Sequence record: OQ718158.1
Length of the DNA: 64,000 nt
Reading direction: 5' to 3' (one strand)
From: Escherichia phage vB_Ec-M-J
Part shown: positions 1-15,272 of the stretch, in pieces
How the letters are laid out: the number at the start of each line of letters is the position of its first letter
Numbering within the stretch: the first letter of the stretch is position 1
The notes under the pieces: model-generated
Seen by the model: the letters and a program-made list of their open reading frames with translations, nothing else
Databases searched by the model: none
What the model was told of the DNA's origin: nothing
Position numbers and translations under genes: made by a program

Positions 1-35
1 TAATTTGGGCAGTTTTTATATTAGCAGTACTTTAA

Positions 36-58
36 AGCACCCTAGTGGTGCTTTTTCT
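36..58 (+). terminator. intrinsic terminator-like hairpin upstream of nrdD
   Basis: Stem agcacc/ggtgct (36-52) followed by a T-run. Confidence 0.4.
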
Positions 59-167
59 ATTTGTACAAATATAAAGCAATGTGACCTTTCCTTGATATAG
101 GTCAAGAGAAATACCCTGTTCTGACGCTATAATGGTGTCTGGTGATGTTAAATAACTTCACCCCCAG

Positions 168-2000
168 ATGATTTCAAAATACAAGGAAAGTAAAATGCAA
201 TTAGATAAATTATATACTGACGTAACAAATTTCCTAAATCAGAGCAATACTGATCTTACAAATGAAAATGCAAACAAAGATGCGAAATGCGTCAATACAC
301 ACAGGGATTTACTTGCTGGTATCCTATCTAAGCATTATTCACAAGATGTTATTCCAAAGGAGCTAATGCAGTGGCATAATGATGGTTATGGTCACATTCA
401 TGATTTAGACTACTATATCAGCCCATTAACTAACTGCTGCTTGGTTAACTACCCAGATATGCTAAAAAATGGATTTACCATTGGTTGTGCAAAAATTGAA
501 GAACCAAAGAGTTTTAGTGTAGCATGTACAGTACTGACACAAATTGTACAAGCTGTTGCTAGTTCCCAGTACGGTGGTCAATCGTTGGCTCATATCGACG
601 TGGGTCTTGAACCTTACGTCCAAAAGTCGTGGGATAAGCTATTAGCGAAGCAAAAGGCATATAATCTCAGTACTGAATACATTGAGGAAGAATTACGAAA
701 AGAAGTCTATGATGGGTGTCAAACCTTACTTTACCAGACAAATTCAATGATTAGTACAAATGGTCAAGCAGCATTCATTTCTCTTAGTTTGGGACTGAAT
801 ACTTCAAAATTTGGTAAATTAATCACTGAACAGTACTTAAAAGTACATGAGAATGGTTTAGGTAAAGATAAGATTACTCCTGTGTTTCCTAAAGTAATTT
901 TCTTTTTACAGGACGGAATCAACATGAATAGCGATGATTGCAACTATGACATGAAACAGTTGGCAATGCGTTGTGCATCGAAGAGAATCTACCCAGACTT
1001 CGTTTCTGTGCCGTTAAATCACAAAGTTACAGGAAGTGGCAGTACAGCAGTAACTCCGATGGGTTGTCGTTCATTTTTAGGAAAATGGGAAGATTCCAAT
1101 GGAAATGAGCAATATAACGGTCGTTTCAACTTAGGCGTAGTTTCTATCAATTTACCTCTAATTGCTCTTGAAAGTGCCTCAGATGGAGAGTTTTTTGATA
1201 AAATAGACGAGCATATGAATATTGCATATCGTGCTCAGATGAACCGTGTAGAGCGTTTAAAAGGCACAAAAGCGAAGCAGAATCCGATTTTGTTCATGGA
1301 AGGTGCACTTTCACGTTTAGGGGCAGAAGAAACGATTGACAAGCTATTTTATAACGGATATGCTAGTATTAGTATTGGTTACGTTGGTTTAGTTGAATGT
1401 TCAGAAATTCTGACTGGTTCTATCAGTAAGGAGTTCTGCATGTCAGTACTGAATTATATGAAAGTAAAATGCGATGAGTTCAAAAAAGAGAGTAATATAG
1501 CTTTTAGTCTATATGGAACCCCAGCAGAGTCACTTTGCTACAAATTTGCACGTTGCATCGAATCTAAATACCCTTCAGTACTAAAACGTGATTACATCAC
1601 AAATTCCTTCCACCAACCAGTATGGGTAGCAAGTTCACCATTTGATAAGTGGAGTTACGAAGAGGGTTTTGCTTACCTCAGTAATGGTGGAAACATCAGT
1701 TATGTTGAATCACCCAACCTAAGTAACAATATTCAAGCACTTGAGACTTTAGTCAATTACGCTTACACAAAGATCCCATATTTTGGTATCAACCAGCCAA
1801 TTGACCAGTGTTACGAGTGTGGGTATAAAGGTGAGTTCAGTGTAGATAAACACGGTTTTCATTGTCCAGTATGTGATAATCGCAATGAGAAGACAATCTC
1901 AGTGATTCGTCGTGTTTCTGGATATTTGGGGAACCCATCGTCTCGTGGATTCAACAAAGGCAAACAACAAGAATGTTGTGAGCGTATACAACACAAATAA
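168..2000 (+). CDS. nrdD: anaerobic ribonucleoside-triphosphate reductase (class III RNR)
   Basis: 610 aa; C-terminal Cys cluster (CYECG...CPVC) and glycyl-radical motif RVSGYLG; NrdG gene immediately downstream. Confidence 0.9.
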   Translation: MISKYKESKMQLDKLYTDVTNFLNQSNTDLTNENANKDAKCVNTHRDLLAGILSKHYSQDVIPKELMQWHNDGYGHIHDLDYYISPLTNCCLVNYPDMLKNGFTIGCAKIEEPKSFSVACTVLTQIVQAVASSQYGGQSLAHIDVGLEPYVQKSWDKLLAKQKAYNLSTEYIEEELRKEVYDGCQTLLYQTNSMISTNGQAAFISLSLGLNTSKFGKLITEQYLKVHENGLGKDKITPVFPKVIFFLQDGINMNSDDCNYDMKQLAMRCASKRIYPDFVSVPLNHKVTGSGSTAVTPMGCRSFLGKWEDSNGNEQYNGRFNLGVVSINLPLIALESASDGEFFDKIDEHMNIAYRAQMNRVERLKGTKAKQNPILFMEGALSRLGAEETIDKLFYNGYASISIGYVGLVECSEILTGSISKEFCMSVLNYMKVKCDEFKKESNIAFSLYGTPAESLCYKFARCIESKYPSVLKRDYITNSFHQPVWVASSPFDKWSYEEGFAYLSNGGNISYVESPNLSNNIQALETLVNYAYTKIPYFGINQPIDQCYECGYKGEFSVDKHGFHCPVCDNRNEKTISVIRRVSGYLGNPSSRGFNKGKQQECCERIQHK

Positions 2001-2008
2001 GGTACATT

Positions 2009-2335
2009 ATGGATTTAAAGCCAATTGTGGTTAACAAATATAAAGAACCGTATGATGTGTATATCGGGCGTGGGTCTAAATGGGGAAACCCATTTACCCA
2101 TATCAGTGATAAACAGACCAAAGCCGAGTTCATTGTTGCTACAAGGGAAGAATCAATCGAAAAGTTCAGAGAATACATTATTGAGCGTATTTCTAATGGA
2201 GAAGTTAAGATTGATGATTTACTTGAGTTAGCAGGGAAACGTCTTGGCTGTTTCTGTAAACCGAAATCATGTCATGGTGATGTTCTCGTTGAGATAGTGA
2301 GTGCAATATTAGATGAATTACCAGACGATAATTAA
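2009..2335 (+). CDS. conserved phage protein, DUF4326-like (CxC...CHGD motif)
   Basis: 108 aa; motifs YIGRGSKWGNPF and GCFCKPKSCHGD; sits between nrdD and nrdG. Confidence 0.5.
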   Translation: MDLKPIVVNKYKEPYDVYIGRGSKWGNPFTHISDKQTKAEFIVATREESIEKFREYIIERISNGEVKIDDLLELAGKRLGCFCKPKSCHGDVLVEIVSAILDELPDDN

Positions 2336-2783
2336 AGACGACCTTATTAATGGGGAGGGAGTAAGATGCTCCCTTTTTGTTAGTGGGTGCAGTCATGGAT
2401 GTGACGGATGCTTCAACGAAGAGGCATGGGATTATAGAAGTGGGCAAGAGTTCAGTACTGATACAATTGATACAATTTTAGCTGAACTCAGCAAACCGTA
2501 CATTAGTGGGTTATCACTCCTTGGTGGAGATCCTCTAATGAAAAAGAACATCGAAACAATTTTAGAGCTATGTAAAATTGTAAAAGAGACTTATCCCAAT
2601 AAAACTATTTGGTGCTGGAGTGGATATACTTTAGAAGAGATTATGGATAATCATGCTAAAGACATTCTTCAGTACTTAGATGTATTAGTTGATGGTAAAT
2701 TTGTTTCAGAAGAAAAGAATTTAACATTACCATTTCGTGGTTCAAATAACCAACGTATACTTTATAAAAATAAAAATTTTTAA
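2313..2783 (+). CDS. nrdG: anaerobic RNR activating enzyme (radical SAM)
   Basis: 156 aa; starts MNY like E. coli NrdG; CxxxCxxC radical-SAM motif CSHGCDGC; GGDPL motif. Confidence 0.9.
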   Translation: MNYQTIIKDDLINGEGVRCSLFVSGCSHGCDGCFNEEAWDYRSGQEFSTDTIDTILAELSKPYISGLSLLGGDPLMKKNIETILELCKIVKETYPNKTIWCWSGYTLEEIMDNHAKDILQYLDVLVDGKFVSEEKNLTLPFRGSNNQRILYKNKNF

Positions 2784-2785
2784 CA

Positions 2786-2816
2786 AAAAAGCACCCAAAT
2801 GGGTGCTTTGTCTATT
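2786..2816. terminator. bidirectional intrinsic terminator between convergent genes
   Basis: Hairpin gcaccc-aaat-gggtgc flanked by an A-run 5' and T-rich 3'. Confidence 0.6.
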
Positions 2817-4002
2817 TTGGTGTTTGTAACGTTACAAACGAACCAGTTAATGTATCAGAAGTTGGGTTTATACCAGTATACATAACACCATTACTTATTA
2901 CTATTGCAGTAAGGTTGTAAGACATTGAAATGAAATCATCAGAATCAGTTAGTGAATTTGGAATTAAACTAAATGTAAGTGTTGGATTTGGATTGGAACC
3001 CAAACGAGTTGTATAGTTTCCACCAGTTCCATATAAACCATCTGATTTTTTTATACCTATACCAAAATATCCTTCTGAATATACTGGATACAATTTATAA
3101 TCAGTTCCCATATCAAATGCAATCAAAGTTGGGTTTACAACGTTTCCTGATGCAGAAACACCATTACCCAAGTTACCAGCTATTCGGTTACCACATACCC
3201 ACATTTCATCAACCGATGTTGTAGTATTACGTAATACCATATATGTACCATAGTAAGAAACCATAATATCCGAAACGGTGTATGATGCTTTTGTATATTC
3301 TGTGAACGTTGTTAAGGCAGTTGTGTTACCCGTTCCAAGCTGCCCATTATTATTGATACCACATCGAAAAAGTGTATTATTATTTTTTAATATCCAAGTT
3401 CCATTATCAGCAGCTATACATATTTTTTTAACATCAGTACTAATTAATGTGAATTTAGTTACTGCTGATGTGTTTCCAGTTCCTAATGTACCATTAGCAT
3501 TTCTACCCATTCCGTAAGCTGAACCATCATTGAAATGTATAATTATATTATCCACCCAAACATGTATATCTTTTATATTATTGAGTTGTTCTTCTGTAAA
3601 TACACTAGAAAAGTAACTAGTTCTATCTACATAAACATTCGAGAATGATGACACACCCCCAAATGCATAAGTCGTGGTTGAGCATGATAAAAATTCATCA
3701 GTTTTCGTTTGTAATAATATAAATCGTCCAAAGGAACACCAAGCGTTTTTAACATTACTTCGGATAAGGGTCCAGGTAGTACGGTTAGTGCTTACATCAC
3801 CATCACCAAAAATATAATTTGAACCAGCACCACTACCACCACCACCACCAATTCCCCATAACTCACCATTATCATATAATATTATGATAGCAGAATAGTT
3901 GCTCGTTGTTGGTGTTAGTATTTTAGATATATTTGGTGTTGGAGCACGATTTCCGTACTTCACCATTCTTGCAAATGGAAGCATTTTAAGTCTCCTTATC
4001 AT
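2812..4002 (-). CDS. RCC1-like beta-propeller repeat protein
   Basis: 396 aa; repeated G-x-N-x-x-GQLGTGNT-type motifs (four or more); Gly-rich GGGGGSGAGS segment; only minus-strand gene in this plus-strand block. Confidence 0.5.
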   Translation of the reverse strand: MIRRLKMLPFARMVKYGNRAPTPNISKILTPTTSNYSAIIILYDNGELWGIGGGGGSGAGSNYIFGDGDVSTNRTTWTLIRSNVKNAWCSFGRFILLQTKTDEFLSCSTTTYAFGGVSSFSNVYVDRTSYFSSVFTEEQLNNIKDIHVWVDNIIIHFNDGSAYGMGRNANGTLGTGNTSAVTKFTLISTDVKKICIAADNGTWILKNNNTLFRCGINNNGQLGTGNTTALTTFTEYTKASYTVSDIMVSYYGTYMVLRNTTTSVDEMWVCGNRIAGNLGNGVSASGNVVNPTLIAFDMGTDYKLYPVYSEGYFGIGIKKSDGLYGTGGNYTTRLGSNPNPTLTFSLIPNSLTDSDDFISMSYNLTAIVISNGVMYTGINPTSDTLTGSFVTLQTPK

Positions 4003-10146: not shown

Positions 10147-10176
10147 AAGCTCGTCTATTGACGGGCTTTTCTTTTA
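10147..10176 (+). terminator. intrinsic terminator after fibre gene
   Basis: Hairpin gctcgtc-tatt-gacgggc followed by ttttctttt. Confidence 0.6.
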
Positions 10177-10186
10177 TGTGTATAAT
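10158..10186 (+). promoter_or_regulatory. sigma70-like promoter (TTGACG-17-TATAAT) overlapping the terminator
   Basis: -35 ttgacg 10158-10163, -10 tataat 10181-10186, TG two bases upstream of the -10. Confidence 0.5.
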
Positions 10187-10209: not shown

Positions 10210-10776
10210 ATGGTCAAATCTTTACTACCACCACCAAAGCGTCACAAAATCCAAGAAATGAAAGACCAACGTACATTAAAGATGTACAACAATTTAGTTA
10301 AGTTACTGTGTAAAAGTCCATCGCTCAAAGCAGAGTTTAAAACTGATGATGACCGCAAAGCACTAATTGAGATGAAGTATATGCTCAGTAAAATGTCCTT
10401 TTACAAATTTGTAAAAGAATACGCATCTGACCCATTTAGTCCTCGTTGGAGAACCAAACCAAGAGAGTTTTTTTTCGGTGGTTCATATACTGATATCATT
10501 CAAGATACTGTGATAGGCGTAGAGTTCGAGATTGATTATGAGCCGAATGGTGTGGAAAACTTGCTGATTGAGAAACGTTTACCAAGTGAAGAAGAAATTT
10601 ATGTTTATGCAAGAAAACTTTCAACTTACAGTTCAAGAATTACTCTAGGCAAGTTAGATTCATTTATTATTTTCTATATACGTGTTGGCGTAGACAAAAT
10701 GGTAACTAAACTCAATGAACTTTCATTACAACAAAAACAGATTAATGCATACAAAGACATTACTGATTTATACTAA
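10210..10776 (+). CDS. hypothetical protein, tandem paralog family member 1
   Basis: 188 aa; shares an N-terminal module (KSPSLKAEFKTDDDRKALIEMKYMLSK) with the next two genes. Confidence 0.55.
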   Translation: MVKSLLPPPKRHKIQEMKDQRTLKMYNNLVKLLCKSPSLKAEFKTDDDRKALIEMKYMLSKMSFYKFVKEYASDPFSPRWRTKPREFFFGGSYTDIIQDTVIGVEFEIDYEPNGVENLLIEKRLPSEEEIYVYARKLSTYSSRITLGKLDSFIIFYIRVGVDKMVTKLNELSLQQKQINAYKDITDLY

Positions 10777-10782
10777 TGAGGA

Positions 10783-11304
10783 ATGAATATGTTTTTTGGC
10801 CCAGTTGGAAAACAAAACAGTACTTTAATTTGGCATGAAATTATCTTTAAAATTATATCAAAAAGTTTCACACTTAAAGATATCATCAATACAGATCAAG
10901 ATCGTCGTGTTCTGTTAGAAGCAAAATATAAATTGAGCAAACACCCTTTGCTACCATTAATCATTGATTACGTTAATGATTATGAATCCAGTCGTTGGAA
11001 GTTTGAAGAAGGCGGTTTATTTCGTGGAAAAACATTCTACGGTGCGGAACGATATGTATTCAGTGATGCAACAAATGGCGTTAAGTTTGCTATTAGAAAC
11101 TTTAACTCCAAAGAAAATGATTATCTTGAAAGTGGAGTGAAAGTATATATCGATAACAATAGCAATGTTCTAACATATGACGAATCACTAATTATGTTAC
11201 AAATAATGCGTGGCGTTGAAGGTGTAAGACACAATCTTACTAATTTGAAAATTCAGCAAAATGATATACATAATAGACAGAAAATTAAGGGTTTATATAA
11301 ATGA
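10783..11304 (+). CDS. hypothetical protein, tandem paralog family member 2
   Basis: 173 aa; module KSFTLKDIINTDQDRRVLLEAKYKLSK. Confidence 0.55.
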   Translation: MNMFFGPVGKQNSTLIWHEIIFKIISKSFTLKDIINTDQDRRVLLEAKYKLSKHPLLPLIIDYVNDYESSRWKFEEGGLFRGKTFYGAERYVFSDATNGVKFAIRNFNSKENDYLESGVKVYIDNNSNVLTYDESLIMLQIMRGVEGVRHNLTNLKIQQNDIHNRQKIKGLYK

Positions 11305-11810
11305 TTTCATTTTTCAAAAAGAAAGAAAAAGTTGATGAAACTGGATTAGAATCGTTTCTATGGACTCTTATCATCAAAAAAAGTCCATTGATAAAAGAAT
11401 ATGCCATCAATGATACTAATAGAAAAACTATCATTGAATACAAATACGAATTAGCAAAATGTGATCCGATTGTTTACCACTTCGTAAAGTACTGTTCTGA
11501 AAATTTATCGGATATCACTATTGAACACGAGTCAGTACCAATGAGTTTTCCTTATGGAGATTGGGTATATACTTATGATATTTTTGATGGGTCTAACGGA
11601 TTCAGTTTTTATTTCACATCAAATAAAGCATATGTTCGAATCAAAACAGATATAGGTTGGGTATTGCATAGCACAAATAAAGAAGATTATAATTTATTAG
11701 CTGATGTATACAGAAGTGTTAAGAACTCAAAGGATATTGATGAAAGAATTAAAAAGCAAAATCGTATTTCTTTATCAATAGAAACATACAAGTCAAAGTA
11801 TGGTGGTTAA
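11301..11810 (+). CDS. hypothetical protein, tandem paralog family member 3
   Basis: 169 aa; module KSPLIKEYAINDTNRKTIIEYKYELAK; 4-nt overlap with upstream gene. Confidence 0.55.
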   Translation: MISFFKKKEKVDETGLESFLWTLIIKKSPLIKEYAINDTNRKTIIEYKYELAKCDPIVYHFVKYCSENLSDITIEHESVPMSFPYGDWVYTYDIFDGSNGFSFYFTSNKAYVRIKTDIGWVLHSTNKEDYNLLADVYRSVKNSKDIDERIKKQNRISLSIETYKSKYGG

Positions 11811-11812
11811 CT

Positions 11813-12214
11813 ATGACTACAGTTGATGATATCTACAGTACTATACGAAATATGAGTACAGATAGAAAAGTGTTTGGTGACAAAGAAAAGTCAAAATGTT
11901 ATGGCATCGATTCTTTTGATATTATTTCATACGAATATAATAACAACGGGACCAGTTCACTAAACATTGTGTGTCCACGAGATCCAGAAAATAATTTCAT
12001 GTACGTTGAAATTAACAATGATGGTATGTTCTTTACTAAAGTATATAAAGGTGGGAAAGAATACGAACCCATCGAAGTAATGAATGAAGAGAAATTCTTC
12101 CAAGAAGATACCATCATCAATCTTGGATTTAGTTACAATGACTATCAAGTACTGGATCATGATTTTAAACGATACTATAATGGTTTTCTAAAGGAGTTAA
12201 CGATTTACTTATGA
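11813..12214 (+). CDS. hypothetical protein
   Basis: 133 aa ORF tightly packed in the operon. Confidence 0.5.
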   Translation: MTTVDDIYSTIRNMSTDRKVFGDKEKSKCYGIDSFDIISYEYNNNGTSSLNIVCPRDPENNFMYVEINNDGMFFTKVYKGGKEYEPIEVMNEEKFFQEDTIINLGFSYNDYQVLDHDFKRYYNGFLKELTIYL

Positions 12215-13449
12215 AAAACAATTTTCTAGAACAAACTATTGTGAAACACTTAGCTGGTTCACAGGCGTATGGCACAAGCACACCAGAAAGTGATACCGAT
12301 TATCGTGGTATCTTCCTTGCAAACAAAGAATTTATCCTAACTCCTTTTTTTAATGTTAAGGAAGTTTCAGATCCTTCTGAAGAAGATACTAAATTTTATG
12401 AAGTCAATCAGTACTTAAGTCTGTATACTGAAGCTAACCCAAACATTCTTGAATCACTATGGGTTAAACCTGAACACATCGTAGAAAGTACTGAAATCTA
12501 TGACTATCTACGCTCATTCAATCAGCAATTATTGAGTTCAAAGATTGCACACTCATACAGTGGATATGCATACAATCAGGTTAAGCGTATGTCTAATCAC
12601 CACGGCTGGCTCGATAAGGAACGAATTGCTGAACGTAAACTAAATGAAATTTTAGAAGAACATCCAGTTGACGAAGTACTTTCATGGATGTATGATACAT
12701 TCCCGCAGTATTTGGTAGACCGTTTGAATAAATCCAATCTTCACCCATTCAATGCTACAAAAATTGATTTTGAAAAATACATGCGTGATACTTCATTACA
12801 ATTAGTTTCAACACAAGCATTGAAACAATATCATTTTGTACGTTTAGTACATAATTATAGTACTGATAAAGTATTAGATCGTGATTTCAATTTATTGAAT
12901 TACAATTCAGGGTATGAACTAATCCATTACGGTGAAAACATCTTTGGGGTAATTATCAACCCGAATGAAAGTACAGTGAATGCTGATGGTTCACTACGTT
13001 ACTTCAACAAAGAACGTACTACAGAAGAATTGAAAGTTCGTCCTGAACTCATTGTAAAATTCAATGAAAAGGAATACAAAGAAAATAGTGAGAACCGTAA
13101 GAGTTATCACAAATGGAAGCAGAATCGTAATGCCAAACGTGCTATTCTTGAATCACACCACGGTTATGACTGCAAACATGCTATGCATACAATCAGGCTG
13201 CTGAATACAGCACAGGAAGCACTTGAAACTGGTATCATCCAAGTTCACCGACCGGATGCTGCTATGTTGATGGACATTCGTAACGGGAAGTGGTTGTATC
13301 AAGAAGTTATGGATTATTTCAACGAAAAGGTTGACTACATCCGAAATGTGGCGTATCATAAGACCCATCTACCGAAGCGACCAAACATAAAGTTGGCTAC
13401 GAAGGTACTATTAGATATCCGTGAAATGCAATGGTACAGTAAAAAATAA
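12211..13449 (+). CDS. Pol-beta superfamily nucleotidyltransferase (PF10127-like, tentative)
   Basis: 412 aa; N-terminal GSQAYGTSTPESDTDYRG matches a GS...SDxD nucleotidyltransferase signature. Confidence 0.5.
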   Translation: MKNNFLEQTIVKHLAGSQAYGTSTPESDTDYRGIFLANKEFILTPFFNVKEVSDPSEEDTKFYEVNQYLSLYTEANPNILESLWVKPEHIVESTEIYDYLRSFNQQLLSSKIAHSYSGYAYNQVKRMSNHHGWLDKERIAERKLNEILEEHPVDEVLSWMYDTFPQYLVDRLNKSNLHPFNATKIDFEKYMRDTSLQLVSTQALKQYHFVRLVHNYSTDKVLDRDFNLLNYNSGYELIHYGENIFGVIINPNESTVNADGSLRYFNKERTTEELKVRPELIVKFNEKEYKENSENRKSYHKWKQNRNAKRAILESHHGYDCKHAMHTIRLLNTAQEALETGIIQVHRPDAAMLMDIRNGKWLYQEVMDYFNEKVDYIRNVAYHKTHLPKRPNIKLATKVLLDIREMQWYSKK

Positions 13450-13459
13450 GAGGATTGTT

Positions 13460-13876
13460 ATGCTAAACGAACAAATCAAAGACGCACTACGTGTACTGAA
13501 TCGCGAAGTTAACCGCATCCAGAAAAGTACTGATCGTTATAAACTAATGCATGAACTTAGACTTTCGTTGGAAGCTATCAATAATGGCGAATGGTATCTT
13601 GAACCAGAATATCGCACACGTGAACTAACTGACGTTGAAAAAGCAATTGTCAAATTCATTACAAGTCGCGACAAAAATGCATCCGAAAAAGATGTATCAA
13701 TGAACTTCCATCTTACTAAATGTGAAGTCGTGGAAAAATTTAAATTCGATTGGCTTGACTGGATTGAAATGATCATGGAACTTGAAGAAGAATTCAAAGT
13801 TGAAGTTGATTTGGAATACGAGAATGAAAACACTAAACTGTATAAACTCGTAGATCATATTCAAAAAATGTTGTAA
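13460..13876 (+). CDS. hypothetical protein with ACP-like C-terminal helix motif
   Basis: Start moved to the Met with RBS agagga (track start 13421 overlaps upstream gene); DWLDWIEMIMELEEEFKVEV resembles ACP DSLDTVELVMALEEEF but lacks the Ser. Confidence 0.45.
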   Translation: MLNEQIKDALRVLNREVNRIQKSTDRYKLMHELRLSLEAINNGEWYLEPEYRTRELTDVEKAIVKFITSRDKNASEKDVSMNFHLTKCEVVEKFKFDWLDWIEMIMELEEEFKVEVDLEYENENTKLYKLVDHIQKML

Positions 13877-13893
13877 ACATATAATATAGTACA

Positions 13894-13904
13894 CTCTAAA
13901 TAAT
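13894..13904 (+). promoter_or_regulatory. late-promoter-like motif CTCTAAATAAT
   Basis: About 26 nt upstream of the 13930 start. Confidence 0.35.
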
Positions 13905-13929: not shown

Positions 13930-14304
13930 ATGAGTGTACTAGAAATTATTGTTTCAAAAGTTTTAATACCATATTGGAAACCAATTTTGGTAGTAGGAGT
14001 AATGGCAGGTTGTGTTTACGGTGGATGGTCAGCAAATACTTATTATACTGGTTATAAAGAAAGTATTGACCAAAAAATAGAAAAGAAAGTTGATTCTGCA
14101 CTCGCTAAGATGCAGCAAGAAAATGCAAAAAACTATATAGAAACCAAAAAGATAATGCAAGATAATGCTAAAGTTATCGAGACACAAGTGCCTATTATAG
14201 TAGAAAGAGAAGTTTACAAAAATGTATGTCTAGATGAAGATGGCGTTAAACTTCTGAATGAACTTAAACAGAATTCCCTTGCAGCGAGGAATAAATTCAA
14301 ATGA
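13930..14304 (+). CDS. i-spanin-like protein (N-terminal TM plus periplasmic coiled-coil)
   Basis: 124 aa; hydrophobic segment near residues 12-32, then charged helical region; lipoprotein gene follows with 4-nt overlap. Confidence 0.5.
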   Translation: MSVLEIIVSKVLIPYWKPILVVGVMAGCVYGGWSANTYYTGYKESIDQKIEKKVDSALAKMQQENAKNYIETKKIMQDNAKVIETQVPIIVEREVYKNVCLDEDGVKLLNELKQNSLAARNKFK

Positions 14305-14615
14305 AATACGCTTTAGTATTTGCAATTTCTTTTCTATTAATTAGTGGTTGTGCTGAAGAAATTAAGTATCAACCTAAACCAATTGTAGAACAAGAAATCT
14401 TACTTGAACGTTGTGACGAAAATACACCACTACCAAGTAAAATCATGGTCGATAAAAACGGGTTCAGAGGATATGATGGTGCTGAAATTCTTGCAGTACT
14501 CGTAAAATGGGATGCAATGTACAATGACTGTGCACTAAAACATGATGCATTAATTAAAACTATTCGTGATTTACAAAATCAAGATGTTAAGGTTAAAATT
14601 AAATCCGAGGATTAA
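14301..14615 (+). CDS. o-spanin-like outer-membrane lipoprotein
   Basis: 104 aa; signal peptide with lipobox LISGC; position after the i-spanin-like gene. Confidence 0.5.
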   Translation: MKYALVFAISFLLISGCAEEIKYQPKPIVEQEILLERCDENTPLPSKIMVDKNGFRGYDGAEILAVLVKWDAMYNDCALKHDALIKTIRDLQNQDVKVKIKSED

Positions 14616-14617
14616 AA

Positions 14618-15229
14618 ATGTCAAAATATCAGGTCTACTATGTTGCCAAACTATCACTTCTTGATGAGTTAAATCAAAGAAGTACACAGATGAAACGCTA
14701 TACATATAACGGTGTTACTTTCCGATACTTCCCACAAAAAGTACTTACATTCGTTAAGAATTGTAAATGCGTTGCGTGTGGTATTGAAGCTACTGAAGTT
14801 CGCATTGAGCGTTCACATAGCACTGATCCGGTATATGGTAAACCTCACTTAAATGTCTATGCAGTTTGTGGTCTATATGAAGTACTGATGACAGTAGATC
14901 ATAACCAACTAGCATCTAAGGGTGGACCTGATTTAGAGTCAAATTACAACACAATGTGTTCACGTTGTAACAGTCTTCGTTCTAATAAAACTGAATCAGT
15001 AGGTGAATTCCTGGAAAAAGTTAAGGGTAGAAATCTACTGGAAGAGCATATGAATGATTTTTTCAATAAAGATAAGAAGAAATCTAAAACTCCTACTCCA
15101 GAAGAATTGGAAGAACGCCGTTTACGTACAGAACTATGGGAAACCGACCATATATGGCATGTTCGTGATTTTGGACGACATATGAAAGCTCTAAAAAAAG
15201 AACAAAAGAAATTGAATAATCACAATTAA
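14618..15229 (+). CDS. HNH endonuclease (free-standing homing-endonuclease-like)
   Basis: 203 aa; CxxC...DHNQLASKGG...N...CSRCN HNH motif; basic C-terminal tail. Confidence 0.7.
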   Translation: MSKYQVYYVAKLSLLDELNQRSTQMKRYTYNGVTFRYFPQKVLTFVKNCKCVACGIEATEVRIERSHSTDPVYGKPHLNVYAVCGLYEVLMTVDHNQLASKGGPDLESNYNTMCSRCNSLRSNKTESVGEFLEKVKGRNLLEEHMNDFFNKDKKKSKTPTPEELEERRLRTELWETDHIWHVRDFGRHMKALKKEQKKLNNHN

Positions 15230-15240
15230 TATGTTATGAT

Positions 15241-15272
15241 AGGGACTTGAGAAATCGAGTCCCTATTTTTTT
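15241..15272 (+). terminator. intrinsic terminator
   Basis: Hairpin agggact...agtccct followed by tttttttt. Confidence 0.6.

Follow-up and report, generated by a model that had tools for sequence, protein, structure and literature searches.

The window analysed here, a stretch of 64,000 nucleotides from Escherichia phage vB_Ec-M-J (OQ718158.1), contains two adjacent plus-strand genes at positions 12,211 to 13,876, and both open reading frames lie where a first-pass annotation of the DNA had placed them. The downstream gene encodes a 138-amino-acid (aa) protein which, as read from its sequence, is a serine-less, N-terminally extended derivative of acyl carrier protein (ACP) and belongs to a phage-specific family of unknown function (phrog_18343). 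It probably acts as a cofactor-independent binding module. The upstream gene encodes a 412-aa nucleotidyltransferase of the RlaP family, and the identification of both proteins is very probably correct. The fuller explanation, that these are two separate genes of one apparent early unit, one an RlaP involved in RNA repair and the other an ACP-derived binding module, we regard as evenly balanced. The window covers 64 kb of a genome of about 350 kb, and all negative statements on neighbouring genes refer to those 64 kb.

The ACP-like protein was modelled with AlphaFold2 (AF2) from a 13-sequence alignment (predicted local distance difference test score, pLDDT, 85.8; predicted template-modelling score, pTM, 0.65), and the model has two N-terminal helices followed by a compact helical domain spanning residues 58-137. 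A Foldseek search against the PDB returned ACPs as the best matches, with probabilities of 0.96-1.0 and target template-modelling scores of 0.63-0.78 for the top 20, and the four-helix ACP fold, proposed earlier as a structural check, was found. Profile searches gave a match to TIGR00517 (E 9e-6) which, at 25.6 bits, falls under the cut-off of 70.45. PF00550 (PP-binding) scored 13 bits against a cut-off of 20.8 and every NCBIfam ACP model was likewise under its cut-off. The C-terminal domain also matched two families of phage ACPs, phrog_5934 'acyl carrier protein' (E 4e-8) and phrog_4154 (E 2e-4), and the N-terminal hairpin gave no family match. The true start of the gene is almost certainly the ATG at 13,460, which has its ribosome-binding site 5 nt upstream. 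Every homologue starts MLN, and the 138-position phrog_18343 profile aligns from this Met. The mechanically assigned GTG start at 13,421, giving a 151-aa product that overlaps the 3' end of the nucleotidyltransferase gene, is not conserved, has no ribosome-binding site and was rejected.

Escherichia coli AcpP aligns without gaps (E 0.003) to the C-terminal domain, AcpP residues 25-72 (mature numbering) matching phage residues 87-134, and under this alignment AcpP residue n corresponds to phage residue n+62. The open reading frame ending at 13,876 (+) contains DWLDWIEMIMELEEEFKVEV, in which a resemblance to the ACP helix II consensus had been noted; the resemblance proved close, as helix II of the phage protein (FDWLDWIEMIMELEEEF) is near-identical to its AcpP counterpart (ADSLDTVELVMALEEEF). 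D35, L37, D38, E41, M44, E47-E49 and F50 of AcpP correspond to D97, L99, D100, E103, M106, E109-E111 and F112, and the acidic recognition helix is retained, with D97, D100, E103, E109, E110 and E111 all aligning with AcpP acids. Two positions of the helix carry tryptophan instead, W98 at S36 and W101 at T39. Ser36 bears the phosphopantetheine in AcpP, and its replacement by Trp98 upholds the earlier observation that the window protein lacks this serine, and with it the exclusion of a carrier function for this protein.

A word-index search for the family found only 13 clusters, all on jumbo-phage contigs. A hidden Markov model (HMM) scan of 1.8 billion representatives gave 57 matches at E <= 0.001, about 12 of them full length with the N-terminal extension and the rest mostly short and of canonical ACP size. 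Among isolate genomes the protein is present in 44 records, comprising Asteriusvirus-type phages (Escherichia, Salmonella) and RaK2/K64-1-type (Alcyoneusvirus) Klebsiella phages. No paralogue was detected, as the family HMM run over six-frame open reading frames of the window matched the gene itself only. Annotation pipelines have called homologues 'acyl carrier protein', 'D-alanyl carrier protein 1' and 'carrier domain-containing protein', and our analysis corrects such database names where they imply a carrier function that is impossible for the window protein.

The serine position was compared in 16 distinct family members. It is occupied by W, T, S, N or R in close homologues, with E, D and K found in addition in the wider family. 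Given this variation, the Trp cannot be regarded as a conserved plug, and Ser persists in some orthologues. The serine is kept in two of the 11 members that have W101 (the T39 position, forming an 'LDW' motif), whereas four of the five members without W101 have the canonical DSLD. Members with LDW thus rarely keep Ser, so that loss of constraint on the serine coincides with an altered residue in that turn of helix II. D97 is invariant across the family, D100, M106, E109 and F112 are each conserved in at least 90% of members, and E103 is invariant among close homologues. Judged from this pattern, the family does not conserve a carrier function.

The W98 form occurs in eight Ecwhy_1-type records and in 121Q, and the 139-aa type found in 121Q recurs at about 70% identity in some 20 more records. 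Between the window and 121Q the ratio of nonsynonymous to synonymous substitution rates (dN/dS) of the gene is 0.18 at a dS of 0.9, and the W98 form is therefore maintained by purifying selection. The protein has been retained after loss of the cofactor site, with full-length syntenic orthologues in 44 phage genomes and this low ratio between W98 clades. It also diverges rapidly. Amino-acid identity between the window and phage JNE01 is 34% for the ACP-like protein, compared with 74% for RlaP and 73% for the inner-membrane spanin (i-spanin) encoded downstream, and dN is 0.70 versus 0.21 for RlaP and about 0.2 for the neighbours, a three- to four-fold difference.

ACPs dock via the acidic ridge of helix II onto basic patches of their partner enzymes. 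In the 138-aa protein a helical hairpin precedes an ACP-fold domain that probably derives from the AcpP of type-II fatty acid synthesis. The protein has apparently lost its dependence on the phosphopantetheine arm but has kept the acidic ridge (the equivalents of D35, D38, E41 and E47). Since Ser36 is lost and variable and the ridge is kept, the protein most likely acts purely in protein binding. Such a role without a cofactor is credible because there are two precedents: apo-ACP inhibits PlsB (glycerol-3-phosphate acyltransferase) and growth (PMC3896788), and the mitochondrial ACP (mACP) of Plasmodium has Phe in place of Ser, works without phosphopantetheine and is essential through its binding to Isd11-Nfs1 (PMC8547962). 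D35 and D38 are required for the binding of ACP to IscS (PMC13343975).

By analogy with apo-ACP, the protein could be a decoy which is made early in infection and occupies the docking sites for ACP on one or several host client proteins, although we put this forward only tentatively. It is somewhat more doubtful that the cofactor-less mimic docks on PlsB, lipid A acyltransferases, AcpS, MukB, SpoT or IscS and shuts them down or rewires them. Were it to do so, it might represent a class of phage proteins for host takeover or anti-defence that has not been described before, with the rapid divergence reflecting an arms race at the docking interface, a suggestion to which we attach a similarly low probability. 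PADLOC matched neither the ACP-like protein nor RlaP to any defence system. The decoy model is preferred because of the apparent early expression of the gene, its rapid divergence, and the lack of annotated lipid or transferase genes nearby; no phosphopantetheinyl transferase, lipid or acyl-processing genes are annotated across the window (WPEC5 equivalent).

Several points weigh against this interpretation. The residues conserved in helix II have structural roles as well, and their conservation is therefore no proof of docking; Trp98 itself, at a variable position, is not a conserved functional element. The ACP domain is less acidic than AcpP, with a net charge of -8 (pI 4.7) versus -15, and the hairpin is neutral. 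Orthologues with serine (FDSLDW) could be carriers modified by the host AcpS, the N-terminal hairpin might cover the docking face or bind a phage partner, and the fast evolution could come from partly relaxed constraint rather than from an arms race. Nothing on this protein was found in the literature, in which the searches covered phage ACPs, ACP-like proteins of phages that lack the Ser, phage Sharanji and a review of jumbo phages.

The explanation that comes next in probability, though we consider it unlikely, is that the protein serves a phage-encoded partner, either RlaP or another early protein, as a structural or regulatory subunit, with the hairpin and helix II forming the interface and no host target involved. 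A parallel is mitochondrial ACP, which forms part of complex I and of Nfs1-Isd11 as a subunit. Phosphopantetheine-independent ACP subunits are known (PMC8547962), the conserved hairpin suggests a dedicated partner, and the gene appears to share an operon with RlaP. Gene order was compared in related loci that included 121Q (L002), JNE01 (L005), RaK2, K64-1, L006, L007, L009, L014, L015 and L016. In the window, L006 and L007 the ACP-like gene directly adjoins the RlaP stop codon or overlaps it, but in other relatives 1.5-3.5 kb is inserted between the two genes: three genes separate them in RaK2, K64-1 and L016, and a 3.5-kb tail-fibre module does so in 121Q and JNE01, where the ACP-like gene has a predicted promoter of its own. 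In L014, whose RlaP is 48% identical, the ACP-like gene is missing, and RlaP is followed directly by a pair of spanin-like genes and an HNH gene; L015 likewise has RlaP without the ACP-like gene. By tblastn, RlaP relatives occur in 475 phage records, against the 44 with the ACP-like gene, so that most RlaP phages lack the latter. The difference in dN further argues against an interface that co-evolves tightly with RlaP. An obligatory two-gene system was rejected on this gene-order and co-occurrence evidence, and any functional coupling implied by the first-pass annotation finds no support in it; the two genes are neighbours and not a system.

It is improbable that the family still consists of carriers, in which Ser-bearing orthologues are modified by the host AcpS and carry acyl or aminoacyl groups for a phage pathway, with Trp98 marking a recently inactivated copy. 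The FDSLDW of some orthologues, such as those of phages A4 and P0010, the canonical DSLD of distant members and the automatic annotation of homologues as carrier proteins fit this explanation, and the Trp codon (TGG) is one nucleotide from a Ser codon (TCG). The gene is not decaying, however, as its frame is intact, its motifs are invariant and the W98 clades are under purifying selection; eight different residues occupy the site in syntenic full-length orthologues, and the window has no annotated partner enzymes or transferase. An accessory or regulatory role in lysis, suggested by the constant position of the gene directly upstream of the spanin pair, is a little less probable again. The order of the ACP-like, i-spanin and outer-membrane spanin (o-spanin) genes is the sole invariant arrangement, seen in all eight loci examined, but all of these belong to one syntenic lineage and the order may simply be inherited. 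Rho-independent terminators directly 3' of the ACP-like gene in L009 and L016, together with a promoter-like motif before the spanins, indicate separate transcription, the spanin-like pair of L014 has no ACP-like gene beside it, and no lysis mechanism is known to involve an ACP fold. Finally, the sub-threshold PF00550 score might be taken to mean that an acidic amphipathic helix resembles ACP by chance, but this is refuted by the fold and profile results and has a negligible probability. We therefore prefer the decoy model, followed by the phage-internal subunit, then the carrier role and then the lysis role.

The upstream protein is a Pol-beta-superfamily nucleotidyltransferase, in agreement with the first-pass annotation. 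It matches PF10127 (RlaP) with 59.8 bits (cut-off 23, E 4e-16), the alignment covering residues 14-131 only, and phrog_388 'nucleotidyltransferase' with an E value of 5e-75 across residues 3-411. The GS...SDxD signature (GSQAYGTSTPESDTDYRG) is present as had been noted, but it sits at residues 16-33 rather than at the very start of the protein. G16, S17, D28, D30 and D59 are invariant in 38 RlaP homologues down to about 40% identity, and in the same homologues the C-terminal helical domain has the invariant basic residues K303, R306, R310, K322, H326, R329, R347 and R357. The AF2 model (pLDDT 91.4) has an alpha/beta N-terminal domain, long helices and a helical C-terminal domain. Foldseek matched it best to kanamycin nucleotidyltransferase, Hailong HalB and MNT antitoxins, with the alignment confined to the nucleotidyltransferase domain, and the Pol-beta fold was thereby found together with the invariant catalytic residues. 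Sequence searches of the PDB with the single protein and with a 38-sequence profile gave no usable match. This half of the locus is correctly identified but ordinary, as the family is known, widespread and already annotated (the gene of phage WPEC5 is named 'nucleotidyltransferase, RlaP superfamily' in GenBank), and it adds nothing new beyond one more phage RlaP.

Two Pseudomonas RlaPs described in a 2025 preprint, the only enzymes of the family with known biochemistry, label RNA only, require a 3'-OH and add one or two nucleoside monophosphates; they prefer Mn2+, require three strictly conserved Asp residues and are able to restore aminoacylation of a tRNA missing a nucleotide (PMC12776372). 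T4 NrdC.11 is a member of the same family (PMC12776372). Iyer and colleagues found RlaP to be the most prevalent repair nucleotidyltransferase in jumbo phages and predicted that it restores lost nucleotides (PMC7824862), and the family has been proposed as a counter to anticodon nucleases in large phages. By family analogy, the 412-aa protein may be an RNA 3'-end nucleotidyltransferase whose action would let phage or host ligases restore tRNAs cut by host anticodon nucleases. Of the substrates first suggested, RNA or protein, RNA is the one expected from membership of the family and protein is not. The phage protein shares with PfRlaP, PaRlaP and T4 NrdC.11 the Pol-beta core, the GS motif and three catalytic carboxylates, as well as the occurrence in large phages; in its predicted structure it may also share their arrangement of an N-terminal nucleotidyltransferase domain and a basic C-terminal helical domain. 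It differs in its length of 412 aa, with an insertion of about 100 residues with beta strands that the Pfam model lacks, and no RNA ligase gene is adjacent to it in the window. Against a role in RNA repair, no RNA ligase gene is annotated anywhere within the window and the association of RlaP genes with RNA ligase or RNA-repair genes is not seen there; moreover, the insertion could alter substrate choice, since the Pfam model spans only the N-terminal third. A scan of the window found no tRNA genes.

In the JNE01-like locus L003 (145-2424; ENA ERZ27302919 k141_489806) the gene encodes 759 aa instead of about 413 and has a faint match to LAGLIDADG_3, which suggests an intein or homing-endonuclease insertion within the nucleotidyltransferase. 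In the related contig L014 (Logan SRR25068758_2946) a gene for a Thg1-family 3'-5' polymerase (1641-2384) is located 1.6 kb upstream of RlaP; this fits a neighbourhood of RNA-repair genes, which the window itself lacks. The anaerobic ribonucleotide reductase genes nrdD and nrdG are located at about 1-3000 of the window (equivalent to 283-285 kb of WPEC5), some 9-12 kb upstream of RlaP. In L015 they are directly upstream of RlaP, which echoes the position of T4 nrdC.11, itself an RlaP gene, in the nrd region.

Table. Coordinates of the two genes, their domains and surrounding features in the window.
Feature	Coordinates	Strand	Evidence
Terminator-like hairpin overlapping a sigma-70-like promoter (promoter at 10158-10186)	10147..10186	+	TTGACG-17-TATAAT, 11/12 matches
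RlaP-family (PF10127) Pol-beta nucleotidyltransferase, 412 aa	12211..13449	+	Pfam, PHROG, invariant residues, AF2
RlaP domains: N-terminal nucleotidyltransferase; lineage-specific middle insertion with beta strands (residues ~140-300); basic C-terminal helical domain	12211..13449	+	
ACP-like protein, 138 aa (phrog_18343, unknown function)	13460..13876	+	ATG start, AAGAGGA ribosome-binding site
N-terminal helical hairpin, residues 1-55 (helices 2-19 and 25-41, linker)	13460..13624	+	Conserved ...QKSTDRY...
ACP-fold domain, residues 56-138 (83 residues)	13625..13873	+	AF2, Foldseek, AcpP alignment
Trp98 codon TGG, at the position of phosphopantetheine-bearing Ser36 of AcpP	13751..13753	+	Gapless AcpP alignment
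CTAAATAAT motif in the 53-nt gap between the ACP-like and i-spanin genes	13896..13904	+	Conservation
i-spanin (124 aa, Rz-like)	13930..14304	+	phrog_1152, E 1e-27
o-spanin lipoprotein (104 aa), gene overlaps i-spanin gene	14301..14615	+	Lipobox LISGC, weak LysC/Rz1 match
HNH endonuclease, free-standing (203 aa)	14618..15229	+	phrog_23285
Intrinsic-terminator-like hairpin after HNH gene	15238..15267	+	13 pairs plus T run

Promoters and terminators were predicted by consensus scan and conservation only. The sigma-70-like promoter at 10,158 is a candidate start for the unit whose last gene is the ACP-like gene. In 121Q and JNE01 a consensus TTGACA-16/17-TATAAT promoter is found immediately upstream of the ACP-like gene. 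The CTAAATAAT motif is kept in seven of eight related loci, the eighth having a weaker TAAATA, and the conserved form YCTAAATAWT lies about 25 nt upstream of the spanin ribosome-binding site, making it a candidate for a separate, possibly late, spanin promoter. From these predicted signals, the ACP-like gene is probably the last gene of an early unit read by the host RNA polymerase, and the spanins are probably transcribed from their own promoter. The sequence CTAAATAWT occurs six times on the coding strand of the window (13896, 15874, 22862, 28103, 29868 and 46078) and not on the other strand, with at least three copies 30-60 nt upstream of start codons, and is a candidate middle or late promoter resembling the TATAAATA of T4. 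At the junction of the tail-fibre module in 121Q (L002 5920-6003), and at the equivalent place in JNE01, the sigma-70 promoter is followed by a terminator-like hairpin and T run (GAGAACTTCATATGGAGTTCTCTTTTTTTT), forming a compact promoter/terminator overlap before the ACP-like gene.

The genes at 13,930-15,229 (+) make up a lysis and mobile-element cluster with no adjacent endolysin or holin. Upstream, at 10,210-11,810 (+), three tandem paralogous genes of 188, 173 and 169 aa directly precede a 133-aa gene and RlaP. Their products are 26-31% identical, have the common motif ...D.DR..L.E.KY.LSK... and match no Pfam family. RaK2 and L016 have comparable small genes (150-190 aa) in the interval that separates RlaP from the ACP-like gene, so the family may be mobile within the locus.

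The 3.5-kb stretch around the two genes is 98.7-98.9% identical to seven Escherichia jumbo phages (Ecwhy_1, WPEC5, CMSTMSU, EC.P1, WPEC3, Turkey3 and fEgEco12), 97.3% identical to TH47 and about 78% identical to the 121Q/PBECO4 group of the genus Asteriusvirus. On these identities the window derives from an Asteriusvirus-like (121Q/Ecwhy_1) jumbo coliphage of the RaK2/121Q type. This part of it has a G+C content of 33-41%, with nearly all coding on the plus strand.

If the ACP-like protein is indeed a binding module, it would be the bacterial-virus counterpart of the phosphopantetheine-independent ACPs of apicomplexans, and would indicate that the carrier fold has repeatedly been recycled as an interaction module. 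A natural apo-ACP decoy, if that is what it is, would point to a vulnerable ACP-client node in E. coli and provide a ready-made inhibitor scaffold. With E. coli AcpP the protein has in common the four-helix fold, an acidic domain and a near-identical helix II, in which L46 is retained besides D35, L37, D38, E41, M44, E47, E48, E49 and F50. It differs in having Trp at both Ser36 and T39, a 55-residue N-terminal hairpin and a lower net charge, and it scores under all curated ACP cut-offs. The Plasmodium mACP also combines an ACP fold with an aromatic residue in place of Ser (Phe113 there, Trp98 here) and works through protein binding via acidic residues. Its Phe is needed for Isd11 binding, whereas a conserved hydrophobic replacement was not found in the phage family, where the position varies among orthologues; the phage protein also has no known LYR-type partner, and its lineage and context are unrelated. 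Inhibition of PlsB by apo-ACP, in which a cofactor-less ACP competes at docking sites, corresponds to the decoy model, but that effect arises artificially when the host overexpresses a protein of its own, and a phage-encoded example has not been described in the literature searched. The phage ACPs of phrog_5934 and phrog_4154 are homologous to the C-terminal domain, while the protein itself belongs to its own family, phrog_18343, whose defining features are the N-terminal extension and the LDW motif.

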